This document shows, one piece after another, positions 1,281 to 52,655 of a stretch of DNA of 52,753 nt. The notes under the pieces were generated by a model. It saw only the letters and a program-made list of their open reading frames with translations. It had not been told where the DNA came from and did not search any database. The DNA is taken from the NCBI GenBank assembly GCA_043821705.1, contig JBDRCN010000016.1:1-52753 (forward strand), in the 5' to 3' direction. This DNA is from Candidatus Omnitrophota bacterium (lineage in GTDB: Bacteria > Omnitrophota > Gorgyraeia > Gorgyraeales > Gorgyraeaceae). Every line of letters begins with the position of its first letter. Position 1 is the stretch's first letter. The position numbers and the translations under genes are program-made.

Positions 1281-1377
1281 TAGCGGTAACGGGTGACCGC
1301 GATTGGGGTCCCCGCAAGCGCGCAGGCGTTTCGCGAGCACTTGCGGGGTAAATCGTGGACAGGACCCGTTACCACTA
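1281..1377 (+). repeat. GC-rich long imperfect hairpin, family C copy 1
   Basis: Stems TAGCGGTAACGGGT/ACCCGTTACCACTA, CCGCGATT/AATCGTGG and CCCCGCAAG/CTTGCGGGG. The core matches the reverse complement of 52048-52138. Confidence 0.9.
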
Positions 1378-6298: not shown

Positions 6299-8259
6299 TG
6301 GGGGATTATTTAGCTAATGTCTTCTCTGCTTCAGGCCCCATTGCAACTTTGATGCCGAATTACGAGTCAAGGCCAGAACAGCTCGAGATGGCTAAAGCTG
6401 TAAGCAAAGCTATCGTTGACGCAAAAATATTGATAGTAGAAGCTGGCACTGGAGTTGGTAAAAGTTTTTCTTATCTGATACCTGTAGTGCGTCATGCTCT
6501 TGAAACAGAAACTCTCGCCATCATATCCACTAACACTATAAGCCTTCAAGAACAGCTAATACATAAAGACATACCTTTCTTAGAAAAGGTTCTAGATGAA
6601 GACCTCGGAGCAGTCTTAGTAAAGGGAAGAAAAAATTATGTCTGCTTAAGAAGATTAAAAAGGTCTAATCTTAAACAAAAGGATCTTTTTTCCGATGAGC
6701 GAGAGATGCAGCAGTTTTCTAAGATCATTGCCTGGTCCTACAGGACGAAAGATGGGTCTTTGTACGACCTGGACGACGAGATAGACATGAGGGTCTGGGA
6801 CATAGTCTCTTCTGATGCTGAGAACTGTCTTGGGAAATCGTGCCAGTCTTTTAAAGAATGTTTTTTTCAAAACGCCAGGGAAAAGATAAAAGAAGCCCGC
6901 GTTCTTATAGTCAATCACAGCCTGTTCTTTGCTAACCTTGCAAGACACGAAGAGAAAAAAAGTATATTCCCTGAATACGATGCAGTTATCTTTGATGAAG
7001 CCCATACCATAGAAAATGTAGCTACTGACCATCTCGGCGCTAATATAAGCAGCACTAATCTTAAGTTTTTAATGGACATTCTCTTTAACTCAAAAAAACA
7101 AAAAGGGCTTCTCTTGACCGTAGGAAGCCAAGATGCCATGGAATGGGTAGAGGTAGTGCGCAATAGGTCTGATAGTTTTTTCAAGGGTGTGAAAAAATAT
7201 TTTCTTGCTAGAGCAAGTAATGATTACTCAGATTCTCTTAGGGTTCGAGAAGCAAATTTTATAGAGAATACCCTTGAAGTGCCACTAGCAAAACTTATGG
7301 AGACCCTTCTTGAAGCGAAGAAAACAGCAGATAATAAAGAAGATGAGGCTGAGATCTCATCATTTATAAAAAGGATCAATGATATCAGGACATCTCTGGA
7401 TGTAATAATAAACCAGACCTTGAGCAACTATGTATACTGGGTAGAGTGCTCTAGGTCCCAAAGACTAGACAAGGTCTCGATAAATGCTGCGCCAATAAAT
7501 ATCGGGGAGATCTTAGAAAAATTACTCTATTCTGAAAACAAACCAATGATCTTTACAAGTGCTACATTGTCTATAGACAATAATTCTTTTGAATATTTTA
7601 AAGATAGGATGGGGATAAAAGGATCCGAAGAGTTACAGCTAGGGTCTCCTTATAACTATAAGGAACAAGTGAATATCTATATTTCAAAACACATGCCTAA
7701 CCCTAATAAGCTCAGCGAATATGCCCTAGCATCATCGAAAAAGATAAAAAAATATATAGCACTTACCAATGGCAATGCATTTATATTATTTACCAGCTAT
7801 TCCCTGATGAACCTGGTCTATAAAGAGCTTGAAGACTATCTTCTAGAAAAAGATTACAACCTTTTAAAACAAGGGGACGGTGTCTCCAGAAGCAAGATGC
7901 TTTCTAGATTTAAAGAGAAAAAAGGTTCGATCCTGTTCGGTGTTGATAGTTTTTGGCAGGGTATAGATGTCCAGGGAGAAGCTCTCTCGAACGTGATCAT
8001 AACAAAACTCCCTTTCCAAGTACCCGATCATCCTGTAATTGAAGCTAGGGTCGAGGATATCCAAAGTAAAGGCAAAGATGCTTTTATGGAATACAGCCTC
8101 CCTGAAGCAGTGTTAAGATTCAAGCAAGGTTTTGGCCGTTTGATACGCAGTAAACAGGATAAGGGAATAGTAGCTATTCTAGATAGCCGCATAATAACTA
8201 AATTTTACGGCCGCGCATTTCTGAATTCCATTCCCGAATGCACCCTCATCAAAGACTAA
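6298..8259 (+). CDS. dinG: DinG/YoaA-family SF2 helicase with Fe-S cluster
   Basis: EAGTGVGKS, DEAH, FTSATL and QGFGRLIR motifs; Fe-S cysteines in YVCL...CLGKSCQSFKEC. Confidence 0.9.
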   Translation: MGDYLANVFSASGPIATLMPNYESRPEQLEMAKAVSKAIVDAKILIVEAGTGVGKSFSYLIPVVRHALETETLAIISTNTISLQEQLIHKDIPFLEKVLDEDLGAVLVKGRKNYVCLRRLKRSNLKQKDLFSDEREMQQFSKIIAWSYRTKDGSLYDLDDEIDMRVWDIVSSDAENCLGKSCQSFKECFFQNAREKIKEARVLIVNHSLFFANLARHEEKKSIFPEYDAVIFDEAHTIENVATDHLGANISSTNLKFLMDILFNSKKQKGLLLTVGSQDAMEWVEVVRNRSDSFFKGVKKYFLARASNDYSDSLRVREANFIENTLEVPLAKLMETLLEAKKTADNKEDEAEISSFIKRINDIRTSLDVIINQTLSNYVYWVECSRSQRLDKVSINAAPINIGEILEKLLYSENKPMIFTSATLSIDNNSFEYFKDRMGIKGSEELQLGSPYNYKEQVNIYISKHMPNPNKLSEYALASSKKIKKYIALTNGNAFILFTSYSLMNLVYKELEDYLLEKDYNLLKQGDGVSRSKMLSRFKEKKGSILFGVDSFWQGIDVQGEALSNVIITKLPFQVPDHPVIEARVEDIQSKGKDAFMEYSLPEAVLRFKQGFGRLIRSKQDKGIVAILDSRIITKFYGRAFLNSIPECTLIKD

Positions 8260-8264
8260 AAAAC

Positions 8265-8316
8265 TAGAGACGAAAATTAGGGACCGTCTACCTCGCAAGG
8301 AGGAACCTGCCCCCCC
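8265..8316 (-). repeat. REP-like palindrome family A, left flank of the RAYT gene
   Basis: Minus strand reads GGGGCAGGTTCCTCCTTGCGAGGTAGACGGTCCCTAATTTTCGTCTCTA; inverted relative to 8887-8953. Confidence 0.8.
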
Positions 8317-8323
8317 TAACATC

Positions 8324-8809
8324 TCATAAAATTAATTCATCTAATATTTCTCGCTCCTTAGGTTTTTCTAAGATCCTTTCGCTATAGCTGCTATACGAAT
8401 ATTCAAAAACTGACTTTACTAATTCCGCCCTAACTGGATTACATTCAATATAAGCAATGCAATCTAACAAATACCTCTCATCAGAGACAATCTTACTCTT
8501 AAACCTCCCTTGCCACAAATATCCGACTTTTTTATATTTCTCATTAAAAAAGTTTGTGTAAGAAAGATTTAAATCATGCATAAAATCGGATATCTTTTTA
8601 GCATCTTTCAGTCTAGCAAGAATGTGAATATGATTTGGCATAAGACAATATCCATATATCGAGACATTATATTTTACCTTATACTTTTTTAATCTAGACA
8701 AATAATTCTCATAATCAGTGGATTCCCTAAATACATTTCTTTTCTGATTGCCCCTAGTTATAACATGGTAATAGGCATTATCCAATAATACTCTTGGCGC
8801 TTTTGGCAT
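8324..8809 (-). mobile_element. HUH/Y1 transposase of the IS200-like superfamily, RAYT (REP-associated tyrosine transposase) type
   Basis: YHVITRGNQKRNVF, YCLMPNHIHIL (HUH), LWQGRF and YIECNPVRAELV...YSYSSY. ATG at 8809 follows an AGGAGG RBS. Flanked by inverted palindromes. Confidence 0.88.
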
Positions 8810-8886
8810 ATAAACCACCTCCTCCTACTATATAGACACAGTGGGTACTCATTTTCTTTCAATTTTTTTTAAAAAAACTTTGGTAA

Positions 8887-8953
8887 GGGGCAGGTTCCCC
8901 CTTGCTAGGTACCCGGTACCGCCTTGTGAGGTAGACGGTACTAAAAGTCTCTA
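8887..8953 (+). repeat. REP-like palindrome family A, right flank of the RAYT gene, with a 22-nt insert
   Basis: GGGGCAGGTTCCCCCTTGC-[TAGGTACCCGGTACCGCCTTGT]-GAGGTAGACGGTACTAAAAGTCTCTA. Confidence 0.8.
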
Positions 8954-13825: not shown

Positions 13826-14539
13826 ATGAAAAAGATTATGATAGCCCCAAGTATACTCTCCTGCGATTTTTCAATATTAAAGGATGAGTTGAAAAAAATA
13901 GAAGATTCTGGAGCTGATATGGTGCACATAGATGTGATGGATGGCAATTTTGTGCCAAATATCACCATAGGACCTCTCATAGTAGAGGCAATAAAGAAAA
14001 ACACAAGGTTACCGCTAGATACTCATCTCATGATAGCGAATCCCCAGAAATTCGTCCCAGCTTTTATAGAAGCTGGCAGCGACATAGTGACTATACACGC
14101 GGAAGCATTTGCAAAAAAGACAAGCCCATCAAGTCTTACTAAAGGAATGTCATTCTCTGTCAATGAGATAGATGAATATAGGCTACAAGAGGCCTTGTCA
14201 TTAATAAAAGATAAAGGGAAAAAAGCTGGGGTATCCTTAAACCCAGATTCAAGTTTCTGCATAAAAGGCATTCTCAAGGACATAGATATGATACTTCTTA
14301 TGTCAGTGCATCCAGGGTTTGGCGGACAAAAATTTATTGAAAAGGTCATCCCTAAGATAAAAGAAGCAAGATCATTGTATGAGGGAGATATACAAGTAGA
14401 CGGCGGCATAAATGATAAAAATGTCTCATCAGCGGTTGAGGCTGGAGCAAATATCATAGTAGCAGGGTCTTATTTTTTTAGCGCGAAAGACCCGAAGGAA
14501 GCAGTAAATAAATTACGCATAAAAACAGAAAGTTCGTGA
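13826..14539 (+). CDS. rpe: Ribulose-phosphate 3-epimerase
   Basis: IAPSIL, HIDVMDGNFVPN, MSVHPGFGGQ and VDGG. Confidence 0.96.
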   Translation: MKKIMIAPSILSCDFSILKDELKKIEDSGADMVHIDVMDGNFVPNITIGPLIVEAIKKNTRLPLDTHLMIANPQKFVPAFIEAGSDIVTIHAEAFAKKTSPSSLTKGMSFSVNEIDEYRLQEALSLIKDKGKKAGVSLNPDSSFCIKGILKDIDMILLMSVHPGFGGQKFIEKVIPKIKEARSLYEGDIQVDGGINDKNVSSAVEAGANIIVAGSYFFSAKDPKEAVNKLRIKTESS

Positions 14540-14592
14540 ACCGTGATTCGTGAATCGTAAACGGATCACGGATTACGCATTACAGATTACGA
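14535..14592. repeat. Heptamer-built palindrome (CGTGAWY)4(RRATYAC)4, copy 1
   Basis: 53/58 identical by eye to 22886-22943; contains the rpe stop codon. Confidence 0.9.
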
Positions 14593-18792: not shown

Positions 18793-18827
18793 AAAGACCT
18801 CGCTATAACTAGCGGGGTCTTTTTTTG
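18793..18827 (+). terminator. Rho-independent terminator
   Basis: Stem AAAGACCTCGCTA/TAGCGGGGTCTTT followed by a T-run. Confidence 0.85.
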
Positions 18828-18876
18828 CATTTACCATCAGCGGTCCGTCTTGTCTCACCCCTATCAGCACCGCTTG

Positions 18877-19112
18877 ATAGTTGAAGCTAAATGGATACTC
18901 TGTCTGCGAATTTGAAAATTTAAACTTTTATGAAGCAATTTTCGGTTTTTATGCCACATTTTATGAGGCGAAAAAACTCGAAGCTGTTCGACGGCACCGC
19001 ACCAGATTTTGCGGTGCCTAGTTTTTTAAGCCCCGAAAAATGCTGAATAAAAGGCGACCCAAAGGGAAAATTTTCATATGAGCGGACAGAGCTCCTTTTA
19101 GATTTAACTGAT
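18877..19112 (+). other. Structured dispersed element family D, copy 1 (ncRNA or non-autonomous mobile element)
   Basis: About 50-nt imperfect terminal inverted arms plus internal hairpins; colinear with 52181-52584. Confidence 0.8.
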
Positions 19113-19116
19113 AGGT

Positions 19117-19163
19117 GGGGGCAGGTTCCCGCTTGGGAGGGAAACGGTCCCAAGTTCGCTCTA
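19117..19163 (+). repeat. REP-like palindrome family A, dispersed copy
   Basis: GGGGGCAGGTTCCCGCTTGGGAGGGAAACGGTCCC, 30/35 identical to the RAYT left-flank copy. Confidence 0.75.
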
Positions 19164-19169
19164 TTTTCA

Positions 19170-19198
19170 TTGACCTTTTTTCCTTATAGTGTTAAAAT
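19170..19198 (+). promoter_or_regulatory. sigma70 promoter of the acsV operon
   Basis: TTGACC, 17-nt spacer, TG-T-TAAAAT. The ATG is only 10 nt downstream and there is no SD. Confidence 0.7.
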
Positions 19199-21930: not shown

Positions 21931-22890
21931 ATGGAGAAGATAACAGAAAAATGGCAAGAAGCAATAACACAAGTAACTTTAGGAGCTGGCAAAGACCAGG
22001 GTGGTACCAGGAGTAAAAGTATCACAATAGGCGGTGAAACTGGTGTCTATTTTATCAAGGGTGAAGATAAATGCCCAAACCCTCCAATAGTAGCAATGGA
22101 AGTATGGGATATGGAACCAGAAACGTGGCCTGAAACCTTAAAAAAAGAATATGGAAGTGTACTATCTAACCCTATTGAATGGGCAAAGATGTGCGTTGAA
22201 AAGTTTTCAAGCGAGATATTATGTCTAAGGCTTTCCAGCATGCATCCTGATTCAAAAAACACATCTAAAGAAGAAACTGGAAAATTGCTAGAGGGGATCA
22301 TAAAAGTTGTCTCTGTGCCGCTAATTATAATAGGATGCTCTTCTCCTGAAAAAGACAATGAAGCAATGGTACACCTGACAGAAGTAGCAAAAGGTGAAAA
22401 CTGTTTGTTCGGCATAGCTACTCAAGAAAATTACAAGACCCTTACTGCAGCATGCTTGAGTGGAGGCCATTCTATGATTTCAGAAGCGCCTATAGATATC
22501 AATATTGCGAAACAGTTGAATATCCTGATATGCGATATGCAGTTACCTAACAATAGAATAGTGATACATCATGCAACTGGAGCGCTTGGATATGGGTTAG
22601 AATACACATATTCTATAATGGAAAGAACAAGGTTAGCAGGACTTTCAGGAGACAAGATGCTCTCAATGCCTATGATAAACTTTATTGGACAGGAAATATG
22701 GCGCACAAAAGAAGCTAAGACAGGTGATGAAGTATCTGGGGATTGGGGACCAGCAAAAGACAGGGGAGCGCTTTTAGAAATGGCTACCTCTATGTCCTAT
22801 CTGAATGCAGGAAGCGATATTTTAGTAATGAATCACCCGAAAGCAGTAGAGAAAACCAGAGAAGCTATAAAAGACCTATGTAAATCGTGA
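21931..22890 (+). CDS. acsD: Corrinoid iron-sulfur protein, small (delta) subunit
   Basis: TIGGET, PIDINIAKQLN, ALGYGLEY and ERTRLAGLSGDKMLSMP. Confidence 0.95.
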   Translation: MEKITEKWQEAITQVTLGAGKDQGGTRSKSITIGGETGVYFIKGEDKCPNPPIVAMEVWDMEPETWPETLKKEYGSVLSNPIEWAKMCVEKFSSEILCLRLSSMHPDSKNTSKEETGKLLEGIIKVVSVPLIIIGCSSPEKDNEAMVHLTEVAKGENCLFGIATQENYKTLTAACLSGGHSMISEAPIDINIAKQLNILICDMQLPNNRIVIHHATGALGYGLEYTYSIMERTRLAGLSGDKMLSMPMINFIGQEIWRTKEAKTGDEVSGDWGPAKDRGALLEMATSMSYLNAGSDILVMNHPKAVEKTREAIKDLCKS

Positions 22891-22943
22891 ACCGTGATTC
22901 GTGATTCGTGAACAGATCACGGATTACGCATTACGAATTACGA
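22886..22943. repeat. Heptamer-built palindrome, copy 2
   Basis: CGTGAACCGTGATTCGTGATTCGTGAACAGATCACGGATTACGCATTACGAATTACGA; contains the acsD stop codon. Confidence 0.9.
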
Positions 22944-32034: not shown

Positions 32035-32055
32035 CAGGTTGCATGCCACAAGCCA

Positions 32056-32109
32056 CCCTCCTACGCCTTTGTGAATTACAACTTAAAAGGCTGGCTTCGG
32101 AGGGCAGGC
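32056..32109 (+). repeat. REP-like repeat family B
   Basis: CCCTCCTACGCCTTT-N-GGCTGGCTTCGGAGGGCAGGC, 48/54 identical to 34227-34280. Confidence 0.9.
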
Positions 32110-32150
32110 AAGTCACAAGTTATGGATTATATATAAAAAGACATAAAAGA

Positions 32151-34224: not shown

Positions 34225-34226
34225 AA

Positions 34227-34280
34227 CCCTCCTACGCCTTTACGAATTGCAGCTTGATAGGCTGGCTTCGGAGGGCAGGC
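34227..34280 (+). repeat. REP-like repeat family B
   Basis: 48/54 identical to 32056-32109. Confidence 0.9.
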
Positions 34281-34302
34281 GGGTTGCGGGTAAAGGATAA
34301 AA

Positions 34303-40986: not shown

Positions 40987-41003
40987 CAGAGCTTTGGGTG
41001 GGC

Positions 41004-41420
41004 CTGCCCGCCGAAGCTAGACGTTATTTATCTGAATGTAGTGAAAAGCGTAGGCGGGTGTAATTCAATGGTAGAATACGAGCTTCCCAAGCTCGCTGCG
41101 TGGGTTCGATTCCCATCACCCGCTCCATCCTACGCCTTTCGTGAATGGTAGATTGAAAGTCTGGCTACGGATGGCAGGCCATAATGTAGGTATAGTATTA
41201 AGCGTTTGATTGGATTGTCCGCCGAAGCTAGACGTTATTTATTTGAATGTAGTGAAAAGCGTAGGCGGACGGATGGCCGACTCTGAGCGAATGCGAAGAG
41301 CGCCGATTCCCATCACCAGCTCCATTCTTCTACGCTCTTTGAGTATAAAAAACTCCGGTGGGGCTTCGAAGAATAGTTCCTACGAAGCCATACCATCAAT
41401 TGGTAAGTTGGATGGCGTAG
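41004..41420. repeat. Alternating array of family B repeats around tRNA-Gly, with a 50-bp direct duplication
   Basis: Orientations: rev 41004-41058, fwd 41128-41180, rev 41219-41268 (49/50 identical to 41008-41057), fwd 41330-41368, rev 41383-41420. Confidence 0.8.
41054..41127 (+). tRNA. tRNA-Gly (CCC)
   Basis: Acceptor stem GCGGGTG/CACCCGC, anticodon arm CGAGC-TTCCCAA-GCTCG, GGTTCGATTCC T-loop and encoded CCA. Confidence 0.96.
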
Positions 41421-52026: not shown

Positions 52027-52047
52027 GGAAAAAATAGCAATTAAACT

Positions 52048-52138
52048 ATTAGCGGCTGGTCCTGTCCACGAGTCACCCCACAAGTGCTCGCCAAACGCTG
52101 CGCGCTTGCGGGGACCCCAATCGCGGCCACCCGCTAAT
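52048..52138 (-). repeat. GC-rich long imperfect hairpin, family C copy 2
   Basis: The reverse complement matches 1290-1366 with about 5 substitutions and 1 indel. It has a different but self-complementary closing stem, ATTAGCGG/CCGCTAAT. Confidence 0.9.
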
Positions 52139-52180
52139 CTGTCATTTCTAACCAGGTTAGGTTTGGTTATGATAGTTTTA

Positions 52181-52584
52181 ATCGTTAAAGCTAAATGGAT
52201 GCTCTGTATGCGAATTTGAAAATTTAGACTTTTATGAAGTATTTTTCGGTTGCCTGCTCTATCTCTTTACTAACTTGTAAGAGTCATTGAACATATTAAA
52301 GTTATAGTAATTTGCAGAGCAGTAACGTGGGTCCGCAGGGAACCAGAATATTAGAAAGAACTCCCTGGTTTCTATGCCCCATTTCATGAGGCGAAAAGGC
52401 TCGAAGCTGTCCGAAGCCACCACACCAGATTTTGTGGTGGCAAGTTCTTCGAGCCCCGAAAAATGCTGAATAAAAGGCGACCCTAACTTATAGGGGACAG
52501 TTTCCAGCTTGTGAGGAAAACGTCTCCCGTATTTTAGGGGAAATTTTCATATGAGCGGGCAGGGCTCCTTTTAGATTTGACGAT
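52181..52584 (+). other. Structured dispersed element family D, copy 2, with two internal insertions
   Basis: Colinear with 18877-19112 except for inserts at 52252-52370 and 52484-52536. Confidence 0.8.
52493..52528 (+). repeat. Family A-like palindrome nested inside element D copy 2
   Basis: GGGGACAGTTTCCAGCTTGTGAGGAAAACGTCTCCC resembles GGGGCAGGTTCCCGCTTGGGAGGGAAACGGTCCC. Confidence 0.6.
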
Positions 52585-52655
52585 CAATGCTAGGGTTAGG
52601 TTAATGAAAAATGTAATCGGTGAGTTAACGGGGGTATGTCTATAGAATTTCGATA

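Follow-up and report, generated by a model that had tools for sequence, protein, structure and literature searches.

What is the 236-nt structured element that lies upstream of the acsV/RACo gene of a Candidatus Omnitrophota bacterium, and why does a second, longer version of it occur in the same piece of DNA? The stretch analysed here, which we call the window, comprises 52,753 nt of JBDRCN010000016.1; copy 1 occupies positions 18877-19112 (+ strand) and copy 2, of 404 nt, positions 52181-52584 (+ strand). The original prediction offered two readings: a large non-coding RNA (ncRNA), or a non-autonomous element that moves as a single-stranded DNA (ssDNA) hairpin. We find that the element represents a family, not described before, of palindromic intergenic repeats that are non-coding and highly structured; the family is found in a narrow Omnitrophota lineage, and the second of the two readings proved the better supported. 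The ssDNA-hairpin element is preferred over an ncRNA because the site of one copy is empty in relatives, because the copies differ in context and orientation, because they share no promoter or terminator, and because they are linked to a REP/RAYT system (RAYT, REP-associated tyrosine transposase). We give an even chance to the view that the element is a non-autonomous hairpin of the REPIN/ERIC/MITE kind that probably moves as single-stranded DNA; the ncRNA reading keeps a lesser, tentative claim. The element is at present best filed as a palindromic intergenic repeat, a variant of the REPIN kind, and not as a new ncRNA class.

That the two copies are colinear and on the same strand, as had been predicted, is borne out by BLASTN, in which the aligned segments are 87-90% identical. 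Both are real copies at the places given for them, but the palindrome runs further out than its predicted ends: folded with longer flanks, copy 1 pairs outward to about 18849-19127 and copy 2 to about 52174-52591. The conserved core measures about 170 nt, and the element about 240-280 nt when the closing helix is included. Neither BLASTN nor nhmmer nor a covariance model (R1, which scores copy 1 at 194 bits on 18908-19081) finds a third copy in the window. The wider search for homologues that the original prediction had proposed was made with these tools and with a 22-mer, taken from a block invariant in all four copies now known, that was scanned against one genome per species for 185,579 species. 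It yielded two further true copies, both in the Omnitrophota metagenome-assembled genome JBDRJN01, at L004 6978-7247 (outward pairing reaching 6973-7250) and at L002 2340-2593. The remaining 22-mer matches lie inside Flavobacteriales genes and are chance, as are the only matches of a 20-mer from within it in the JGI metagenomes. Scans of IMG/VR with two conserved blocks and a BLASTN search in distant mode, with copy 1 as query, of PLSDB plasmids and GenBank phages gave no match, and nhmmer and a calibrated covariance model found no extra or degenerate copies in about 186 kb of DNA. JBDRJN01 is also the nearest relative of this genome: its RACo protein is 80% identical, all other matches reaching 78% at most. 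Four copies are known, from the 52.7 kb of this genome and about 58 kb of JBDRJN01 that were covered, the exact 22-mer scan finding just two in the whole JBDRJN01 assembly, and because only these were found, all in this genome and its nearest relative, we describe the family as narrow. A search of the literature for ncRNAs or MITEs of Omnitrophota came back empty.

Folded as RNA, the + strand of copy 1 reaches -89.8 kcal/mol (z = -10.1, with none of 200 dinucleotide shuffles as good), and copy 2 reaches -151.4 kcal/mol (z = -8.0). The consensus fold is a rod in which a closing helix of 36 pairs, P1/P1b, leads through P2 and P3 to a three-way junction and from there to P4 and the apical P5; hairpin P3a branches off on the 5' side of the junction and hairpin P6 off the 3' side. 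P4 and P5 are separated by the largest internal loop, of 9+5 nt. In copy 1 (all + strand) the 5' strand of P1/P1b, 18878-18921, has 19068-19110 as its partner; a tandem G.A motif lies within this helix, where GA at 18908-18909 faces GA at 19080-19081. The 5' strands of P2 (CTTTTAT-GA-AGCA) and P3 (TTTTCGG), 18925-18945, pair with 19034-19054, and a second tandem G.A motif sits in this region. P3a spans 18946-18977 (TATGCC-A-CAT-TTT-ATG-A-GGCG), P5 18993-19018 (GGCACCGCA-CCAGATTT-TGCGGTGCC) and P6 19059-19067 (CCC-AAA-GGG). In copy 2 (+ strand), P4 encloses P5 at 52398-52455, GGCTCGAAG (52398-52406) pairing with CTTCGAGCC (52447-52455), and P5 is formed by GCCACCACA (52416-52424) and TGTGGTGGC (52433-52441) around a loop at 52425-52432. 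The helices drawn in the original prediction, namely the closing helix, CTTTTAT-GA-AGC/GCT-GA-ATAAAAG, TTTTCGG/CCGAAAA and the apical hairpin, all appear in the folds of the copies.

Is it the fold that is conserved, or the sequence? Selection on the fold rather than the sequence had been proposed, and for this question the four copies were aligned over 237 columns (89% mean column identity), with the two copy 2 insertions removed and the variable side hairpin trimmed. The consensus structure has 81 pairs, and 95.7% of its cells are standard pairs. Fourteen pairs are changed on both sides (in four related copies, which carry no power for R-scape-type covariation statistics), against 5.3 +/- 1.8 in column shuffles, 0 of 500 of which reach 14; when partners are slid by 1-3 columns as a control, at most 3 pairs are changed on both sides. 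The claim that the fold is conserved holds on these figures. The double changes fall in the closing helix P1/P1b (9 of 36 pairs), in P4 (three pairs) and in P5 (two pairs, none broken); in P2/P3, 17 of 18 pairs never vary. P2/P3 is the most sequence-conserved part of the element, its 3' partner lying within a 27-nt block invariant in 4/4 copies, and P1b-P2-P3 as a whole hardly varies and shows no covariation. The element is conserved partly as sequence and partly as structure: selection on the fold describes P1, P4 and P5, which covary, and does not describe the sequence-invariant P1b-P2-P3.

The two compensatory changes claimed for the apical hairpin are there, C-G to G-C and G-C to A-U around CCAGATTT; the apical loop CCAGAUUU is conserved, with UCAGAUUU in L002. 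The central helix had to be redrawn. The real one is GGCUCGAAG/CUUCGAGCC, seen in copy 2 and L004 and covarying with GGCUUAAAA/UUUUAAGCC in L002, whereas copy 1 pairs AAAAAACU/AGUUUUUU instead, an alternative helix created by its GG-to-AA changes. Copy 1 is in this respect a hybrid, with a B-type 5' strand and an A-type 3' strand. Copy 2 is of subtype B, and each genome has one subtype-A-like and one subtype-B copy. Sorting the copies by identity does not sort them by genome: L004 is the nearest match of copy 2, and the 3' half of copy 1 is like L002. In subtype A, P5 is followed by TAGTTTTTTA, and this apical hairpin with its U run, at the middle of the element, looks like an intrinsic terminator and also scores as one.

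Could the copies be the remnant of a protein-coding gene, as the original prediction had allowed, or a small-protein or toxin gene? Three copies have an uninterrupted reading frame of 38 codons (ATGAAG...TGCTGA), of which copy 2 keeps 31 codons open. Its codon differences, however, are 57 nonsynonymous and 16 synonymous (21/38/37 by codon position), and its substitutions are the compensatory changes of the stems. The frame lacks a Shine-Dalgarno sequence and is split by a 119-nt insertion, and the length at the P6 site, which is 9, 16, 26 and 59 nt in the four copies, breaks any frame through P6 on either strand. Three copies, translated in six frames and searched as peptides against 5.8 billion predicted proteins to catch ORFs spuriously called over homologous elements, gave no match. 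With no conserved frame and no homologues, we regard a coding remnant as scarcely credible.

The known structured RNAs fare little better. At gathering thresholds, the Rfam 15 covariance models, which include 6S RNA, tmRNA, RNase P, SRP, introns, HEARO/omega-RNA and riboswitches, match only a tRNA-Gly in the whole window; at E <= 10 on short stretches round 4/4 copies the matches are scattered, far below gathering, and none recurs at the same part of the element. The Rfam check suggested at the outset has placed the element outside the known families. A 6S-like or Ms1-like rod RNA that binds RNA polymerase would account for the overall rod shape and for the 9+5-nt internal loop between the GC-rich P4 and P5, and some copies lie near folate/C1 genes (purH-folC, the acs cluster); a link between 6S RNA and ygfA exists in some bacteria. 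Yet a large central bubble is missing, the closing helix exceeds the expected length several times over, and the element occurs in several copies, at variable sites and in either orientation, and tolerates insertions of 119 and about 50 nt. Nor is there a 6S or Ms1 match even at E <= 10 on the short stretches, or any match of the RF00013 type. We consider a rod RNA of this sort very improbable; it fails its tests, as do the coding reading and the riboswitch, to which we come below.

The fold has a preferred strand. In each of the four copies the + strand has the more stable fold, the margins being 12.6, 20.5, 12.9 and 5.9 kcal/mol; in copy 1 the - strand reaches -77.2 kcal/mol as RNA (z = -7.9), and with DNA parameters the + strand has -56.0 kcal/mol (z = -10.5) and the - strand -48.6. 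The non-Watson-Crick oppositions in the helices are G.U, A.A, U.U, one G.A and two symmetric tandem GA/GA loops, and no copy is without such tandem loops, L002 having three. There are hardly any A.C oppositions; on the - strand the G.U and tandem GA/GA oppositions would become C.A and UC/UC. The earlier remark that many non-Watson-Crick pairs are G.T on the + strand is to be corrected to a count: copy 1 has four G.U pairs on its + strand and one on its - strand. Because of the + strand preference and of the G.U and tandem G.A oppositions, the folds point to selection on one single strand, and RNA or single-stranded DNA would fit alike. A further argument, from GC skew and the replication strand, was dropped: skew follows gene orientation here.

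Strand preference is also what an RNA gene would show. A novel family of structured ncRNA genes would be about 170-240 nt long and read from the + strand, and each genome would hold two paralogues, A and B; the RNA would either be cut out of longer transcripts or work in trans, as a protein-binding rod for instance, and the REP sequences described below would be bystanders in tolerant loops. The + strand fold is favoured in 4/4 copies, as such a gene would have it. Two tandem G.A motifs and the apical loop are conserved, P1, P4 and P5 covary, the GG-to-AA change in copy 1 restores pairing with the A-type 3' strand, both large insertions of copy 2 lie in a junction or loop, and one A-like and one B copy occur per genome. 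In addition, the copies are 82-93% identical across the two genomes, whose syntenic DNA is 70% identical over 20 kb; measured against these genes, this is near rRNA-like conservation.

But what do the places where the copies lie tell us? The window is a housekeeping stretch of an Omnitrophota chromosome, with acetyl-CoA synthase/CODH genes, lepA, lepB, RACo/acsV and acsE. Copy 1 lies, as claimed, between a terminator (18793-18822 plus a T run) that belongs to a glycine-zipper/zinc-ribbon gene and the acsV/RACo promoter at 19170-19198 (TTGACC-17-TAAAAT with TG, conserved in relatives), on the same strand as both genes. Copy 2 is antisense to the genes on either side of it, a reading frame that runs off the window end and a gene for an XrtA/PEP-CTERM-associated ATPase. 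(This AAA_22 gene was considered as a mobile-element gene and rejected.) The L004 copy follows a GT4 glycosyltransferase gene and precedes the promoter of a CvpA-like gene, again on the same strand, and the L002 copy fills the 234-nt purH-folC spacer in antisense orientation. The four neighbourhoods are unrelated and have no neighbour gene in common; two copies are sense and two antisense, all of them strictly intergenic. No promoter or terminator stands at the same place in 4/4 copies, and the upstream sequences are unrelated. A riboswitch or other cis-regulatory leader fails on position and orientation, copy 1 and the L004 copy lying upstream of the downstream gene's promoter and the other two being antisense; the original judgement that a riboswitch was unlikely is borne out on both counts.

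The comparison of empty with filled sites, also proposed at the outset, can be made for copy 1. The order lepA-lepB-(glycine zipper)-RACo is kept in JBDRJN01 and L018, and L015 and L016 keep lepA, lepB and RACo with other genes between them. Between RACo and the glycine-zipper gene that follows lepB, this genome has a spacer of 441 nt, against one of 144 nt in JBDRJN01 and one of 308 nt in L018. The element is absent from the copy-1 site in JBDRJN01 and L018, and the covariance model finds none in L015 or L016. Downstream, the gene order is conserved. The JBDRJN01 spacer cannot be aligned with that of copy 1, so the exact boundaries between filled and empty are not derivable. The relatives have other things in this place. 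JBDRJN01 contains perfect palindromes of the form (G/A)TAGGGGnnC-TTAA-GnnCCCCTA(C/T), at L014 9881-9920, 8705-8732 and 8486-8511 and at L002 5937-5970, a further family of short REP-like palindromes of which one is a terminator-like hairpin at the empty copy-1 site; in L018, 9690-9900 of the same intergenic region carries a different GC-rich palindromic repeat (GCGAGCCCCGAAGGGGCGAAGCAATC...). Since different repeats occupy the same spacer in different lineages, the spacer appears to collect them.

These surroundings tell against an ncRNA gene in several ways. The copies have no promoter or terminator in common and unrelated upstream sequences; copy 1 stands behind a strong terminator; the positions are non-orthologous, with the copy-1 site empty in relatives; and two copies are antisense between genes of the opposite strand, tightly spaced in L002. 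To this are added the absence of an Rfam relative, the P5 and U run of subtype A, which would terminate a + transcript halfway, and the loss of the whole outer helix in the L002 copy, where REP-5'-arm-like arms stand instead. Weighing both sides, we regard an ncRNA gene family as possible but doubtful.

The same contexts bring in another explanation, that of a cis-acting module of the host (a terminator, an insulator, or an mRNA-stabilising or RNase III hairpin) which was duplicated by recombination and kept to separate transcription units. All copies are strictly intergenic and both strands fold strongly; the centre of subtype A, an A-tract, a GC hairpin and a T-tract, is terminator-like; the L004 copy comes directly after a gene with no other terminator; and the L002 copy occupies the entire purH-folC spacer. 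However, the gene before copy 1 already has a terminator of its own, relatives do without the element at the same site, and 240 nt with conserved branches and G.A motifs far exceed what termination needs. The strand asymmetry, the conservation across genomes and the REP/TGATAG boundaries would also be left unexplained. As the origin of the family such a module seems to us unlikely, and a terminator or insulator role in the host may be compatible with a mobile element or an ncRNA alike.

The evidence that links the element to a mobile system begins with a gene at 8324-8818 (- strand) that encodes a RAYT, a Y1 HUH enzyme (Pfam Y1_Tnp, E = 2e-18; NCBIfam NF047646, 80.9 bits against a cut-off of 80). 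It lies between a DinG-like helicase gene and a PALP-domain (TrpB-like) gene, and it is a candidate for the trans-acting mobiliser of the element. One inverted REP unit flanks it on the left at 8271-8324 (- strand, E = 1.3e-11) and one to two overlapping units on the right at 8876-8942 (+ strand), with the consensus TAGGGGGCAGGTTCC-loop-GGnAAACGGTCCC. As a whole, 8271-8942 is a REPtron, a RAYT gene between REP hairpins in opposite orientations, and many Omnitrophota assemblies have RAYT homologues, at 50-63% identity. When the window is scanned with a REP profile, complete units turn up in four places and no others: on either flank of the RAYT, at the 3' end of copy 1 and inside P6 of copy 2. 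The unit at copy 1 (19111-19159, + strand, E = 5e-11) abuts the element and is of the RAYT-flanking family, and the unit in the P6 loop of copy 2 (52483-52537, + strand, E = 2e-9) is the hairpin of about 50 nt by which the original prediction saw CCC-AAA-GGG extended. The extension is there as described, but it is a REP unit of the RAYT-flanking family.

This changes how the insertions of copy 2 are read. That they are confined to junctions or loops is correct; rather than elaborations of an RNA, they look like other repeats that were inserted. Besides the insertion of about 50 nt in the P6 loop, there is one of 119 nt at 52252-52370 (+ strand), at the P3/P3a junction after TTTTCGGTT, with GGTT at either end. 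Nothing similar to it occurs elsewhere in the DNA compared, and it may be another small mobile element; internal inverted repeats (CTGCTCT...AGAGCAG) were also noted in it.

A similar association is found in JBDRJN01. Its RAYT, P0136, is 53% identical to the one here, lies on the contig that carries the L002 copy and is flanked by clearly homologous REPs (ACAGTTTCC...GGAAAACGTCTC). The L002 copy itself is without the usual outer helix, and its core is closed by ATAG-GAGGCGGGGATTAC/GTAACCCCGCCTTC-TAT, which resembles the REP 5' arm and its complement; the replacement arms read ATAG-GAGGCGGGG.../...CCCCGCCTTC-TAT. In copy 1 the extended pairing joins CACCCCTATCAG with CTGATAGGTGGGG, the foot of the adjoining REP, and the flanks of copy 1 and L004 are inverted sequences that resemble REP feet. 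When the copies are checked for the two arms of a REPIN, copy 1 shows a complete REP to its right and to its left no more than a degenerate inverted foot, CCCCTATCAG; L004 has inverted half-arms. A full unit is detected by the REP profile at two of the four copies; the core of L002 sits within REP-5'-arm-like arms, and the REP of copy 2 is in a side loop.

The boundaries carry motifs as well. The octamer TGATAGTT lies at the 5' boundary of copy 1 (18875-18882, + strand) and 4 nt upstream of copy 2 (52170-52177, + strand), and TGATAGGT lies at the 3' boundary of copy 1 (19109-19116). Of seven occurrences of TGATAGTT in 68.7 kb (the window, L002 and L004), four lie no further than 25 nt from a 5' end of the element, one at each copy; three of these run in its orientation, and the spacing varies. 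By our own estimate the probability of four in seven in such windows is about 1e-10. The octamer resembles the (A/T/G)TAG foot 5' of the REP hairpins, whose counterpart in E. coli is GTAG. Copy 2 is further bracketed by a direct repeat of 9 nt, GGTTAGGTT (52155-52163 and 52594-52602, + strand), of which these are the only two occurrences in the window, 0.32 being expected by chance; the pair could be a 9-bp target-site duplication or the remnants of REP arms.

Taken together, these observations suggest how a mobile hairpin element might work. The element would be excised and inserted as a folded single strand, the + strand, by the Y1/HUH RAYT or a related enzyme, at or near REP-foot motifs of the TGATAG type and in the loops of hairpins. 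Movement as a single-stranded hairpin would explain why palindromes are nested and why the G.T and G.A mismatches are specific to one strand. Mechanisms that act on hairpins would yield a REP in a loop of the element, a core within REP-like arms and an element between REP feet, and they would also yield compensatory changes without any function in RNA. A transcribed copy would form a long RNA rod, possibly a terminator, an insulator or an RNase III site; such an effect would be a side effect or an exaptation and not the reason why the copies exist.

Several findings weigh against the mobile hairpin element. Four copies, two per genome, are far fewer than in typical REPIN, ERIC or MITE families. 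Neither a clean target-site duplication nor a consistent terminus could be made out: TGATAG (6 nt) stands on both sides of copy 1 and GGTTAGGTT on both sides of copy 2, and L004 and L002 have neither of these. Conservation is highest in the inner core, and it is the outer arms that vary, the reverse of what REPINs show. The association with REPs rests on two REP units in one window, and the two RAYTs, only 53% identical, lie in different contexts. Identity of 93% across genomes needs either recent transfer or strong constraint, and constraint would also fit a functional RNA. Finally, neither a transposition intermediate nor an excision product nor a polymorphism in a population was seen. A further thought concerns the core of about 170 nt, with its two conserved tandem G.A motifs, three-way junction and invariant apical loop: it may be a new class of functional structured nucleic acid, RNA or folded ssDNA, that travels with the REP/RAYT system, is recognised by a domesticated Y1 transposase or a host protein, and is kept about 90% identical for the benefit of the host or the RAYT instead of being simply selfish. 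We hold this idea to be somewhat speculative, slightly more so than the ncRNA gene.

Other repeats populate the window. A second family is a 77-nt GC-rich hairpin at 52058-52133 (+ strand) and 1290-1366 (- strand), 92% identical and 66-69% GC in a genome of 39% GC; one member closely precedes copy 2, and the other lies upstream of the ACS/CODH beta-subunit gene. The region 52040-52150 folds better on the - strand (-49.8 kcal/mol, z = -4.0) and has no Rfam match. The tRNA-Gly(CCC) gene at 41054-41127, in the region 40990-41335, has a 68-nt leader that is duplicated about 211 nt downstream (88% identical); a degenerate tRNA remnant with the T-arm and 3' end (41304-41328) and a 540-aa AAA_22/ATPase_2 gene follow, and the whole looks like an old integration or duplication at a tRNA. 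A 73-nt repeat (32055-32127 and 34226-34298, 81% identical) sits at or beside gene starts, at the aroQ/M24-peptidase and accB/accC junctions, and could be an intergenic repeat family or a cis-regulatory element. A 59-nt repeat (14534-14592 and 22885-22943, 92% identical) consists of heptamer-like units of the CGTGAATCGTGAA type at two intergenic junctions.

What would the favoured reading mean? RAYT/REPIN systems are the main known mobile DNA that stays for long within bacterial lineages, and their role in the cell is still debated. If the element is indeed linked to REPs, its large, branched and strand-specific fold, in a phylum that has hardly been studied, would show that REP systems can carry or build complex structured modules, so far a matter of speculation only (PMC3116915). 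Nested palindromic repeats can, moreover, mimic a covarying multi-branched ncRNA, so screens for structured RNAs in metagenome-assembled genomes should compare empty with filled sites and look for repeat families. Should the element be an RNA gene instead, a new bacterial ncRNA class would have been found.

Finally, we would like to compare the element with the systems it resembles. REPINs, as described by Bertels and Rainey, are hairpins mobilised by RAYTs in which compensatory changes are common and which may be building blocks of more complex repeats (PMC3116915). Like them, the element is a non-coding, imperfect extragenic palindrome with compensatory changes (PMC3116915) that persists across related genomes; both genomes that bear it have a RAYT flanked by REPs, and REP units or foot-like sequences occur at or inside every copy. 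However, it is about 2.5 times longer and multi-branched, its core is conserved rather than the REP arms, only two copies per genome are known, and the position of the REP relative to the core varies from abutting to enclosing to lying in a loop. The ERIC or IRU sequences of enterobacteria, imperfect palindromes of 127 bp that are regarded as MITEs, are likewise intergenic, found in either orientation and at differing sites between species, more conserved than their surroundings, and enlarged by insertion at discrete internal sites (PMC3116915, in part). They come from another phylum, and a relationship in sequence is not expected; the element is about twice as long and has side branches, and the TA duplication of ERIC is not seen.

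With Correia/NEMIS and other MITEs the element shares terminal inverted repeats (its ends pair over at least 36 bp, with pairing that extends into the flanks), a non-coding sequence, intergenic location and possible effects as a terminator or RNase III site. In contrast to these, no consistent target-site duplication was found for it, and within the window, where the RAYT is the only transposase, no partner insertion sequence with matching ends. The asymmetry of its fold between the strands suggests that it moves by a single-stranded mechanism and not by a double-stranded DDE one. The long, imperfectly paired rod recalls 6S and the other rod RNAs of Rfam, from which the element differs in being multi-copy and mobile, in lacking a central bubble and in matching no model. 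A further comparison is with the non-autonomous, PATE-like members of the IS200/IS605 family, which Y1 transposases move as single strands: here, too, a Y1 HUH enzyme is encoded in the genome and the structure is strand-specific, and TGATAG[TT] at the 5' boundary, with a similar sequence at the 3' end of copy 1, resembles a left target and a right-end cleavage site. The ends of IS200/IS605 elements are not inverted repeats of each other, though, whereas those of the element pair over tens of bases; the distance from motif to element varies, and no tnpA or tnpB relative of the element is known. It is the REPINs, then, with a RAYT between REPs in each element-bearing genome, beside which the element is best placed, as a long and branched variant of their kind.

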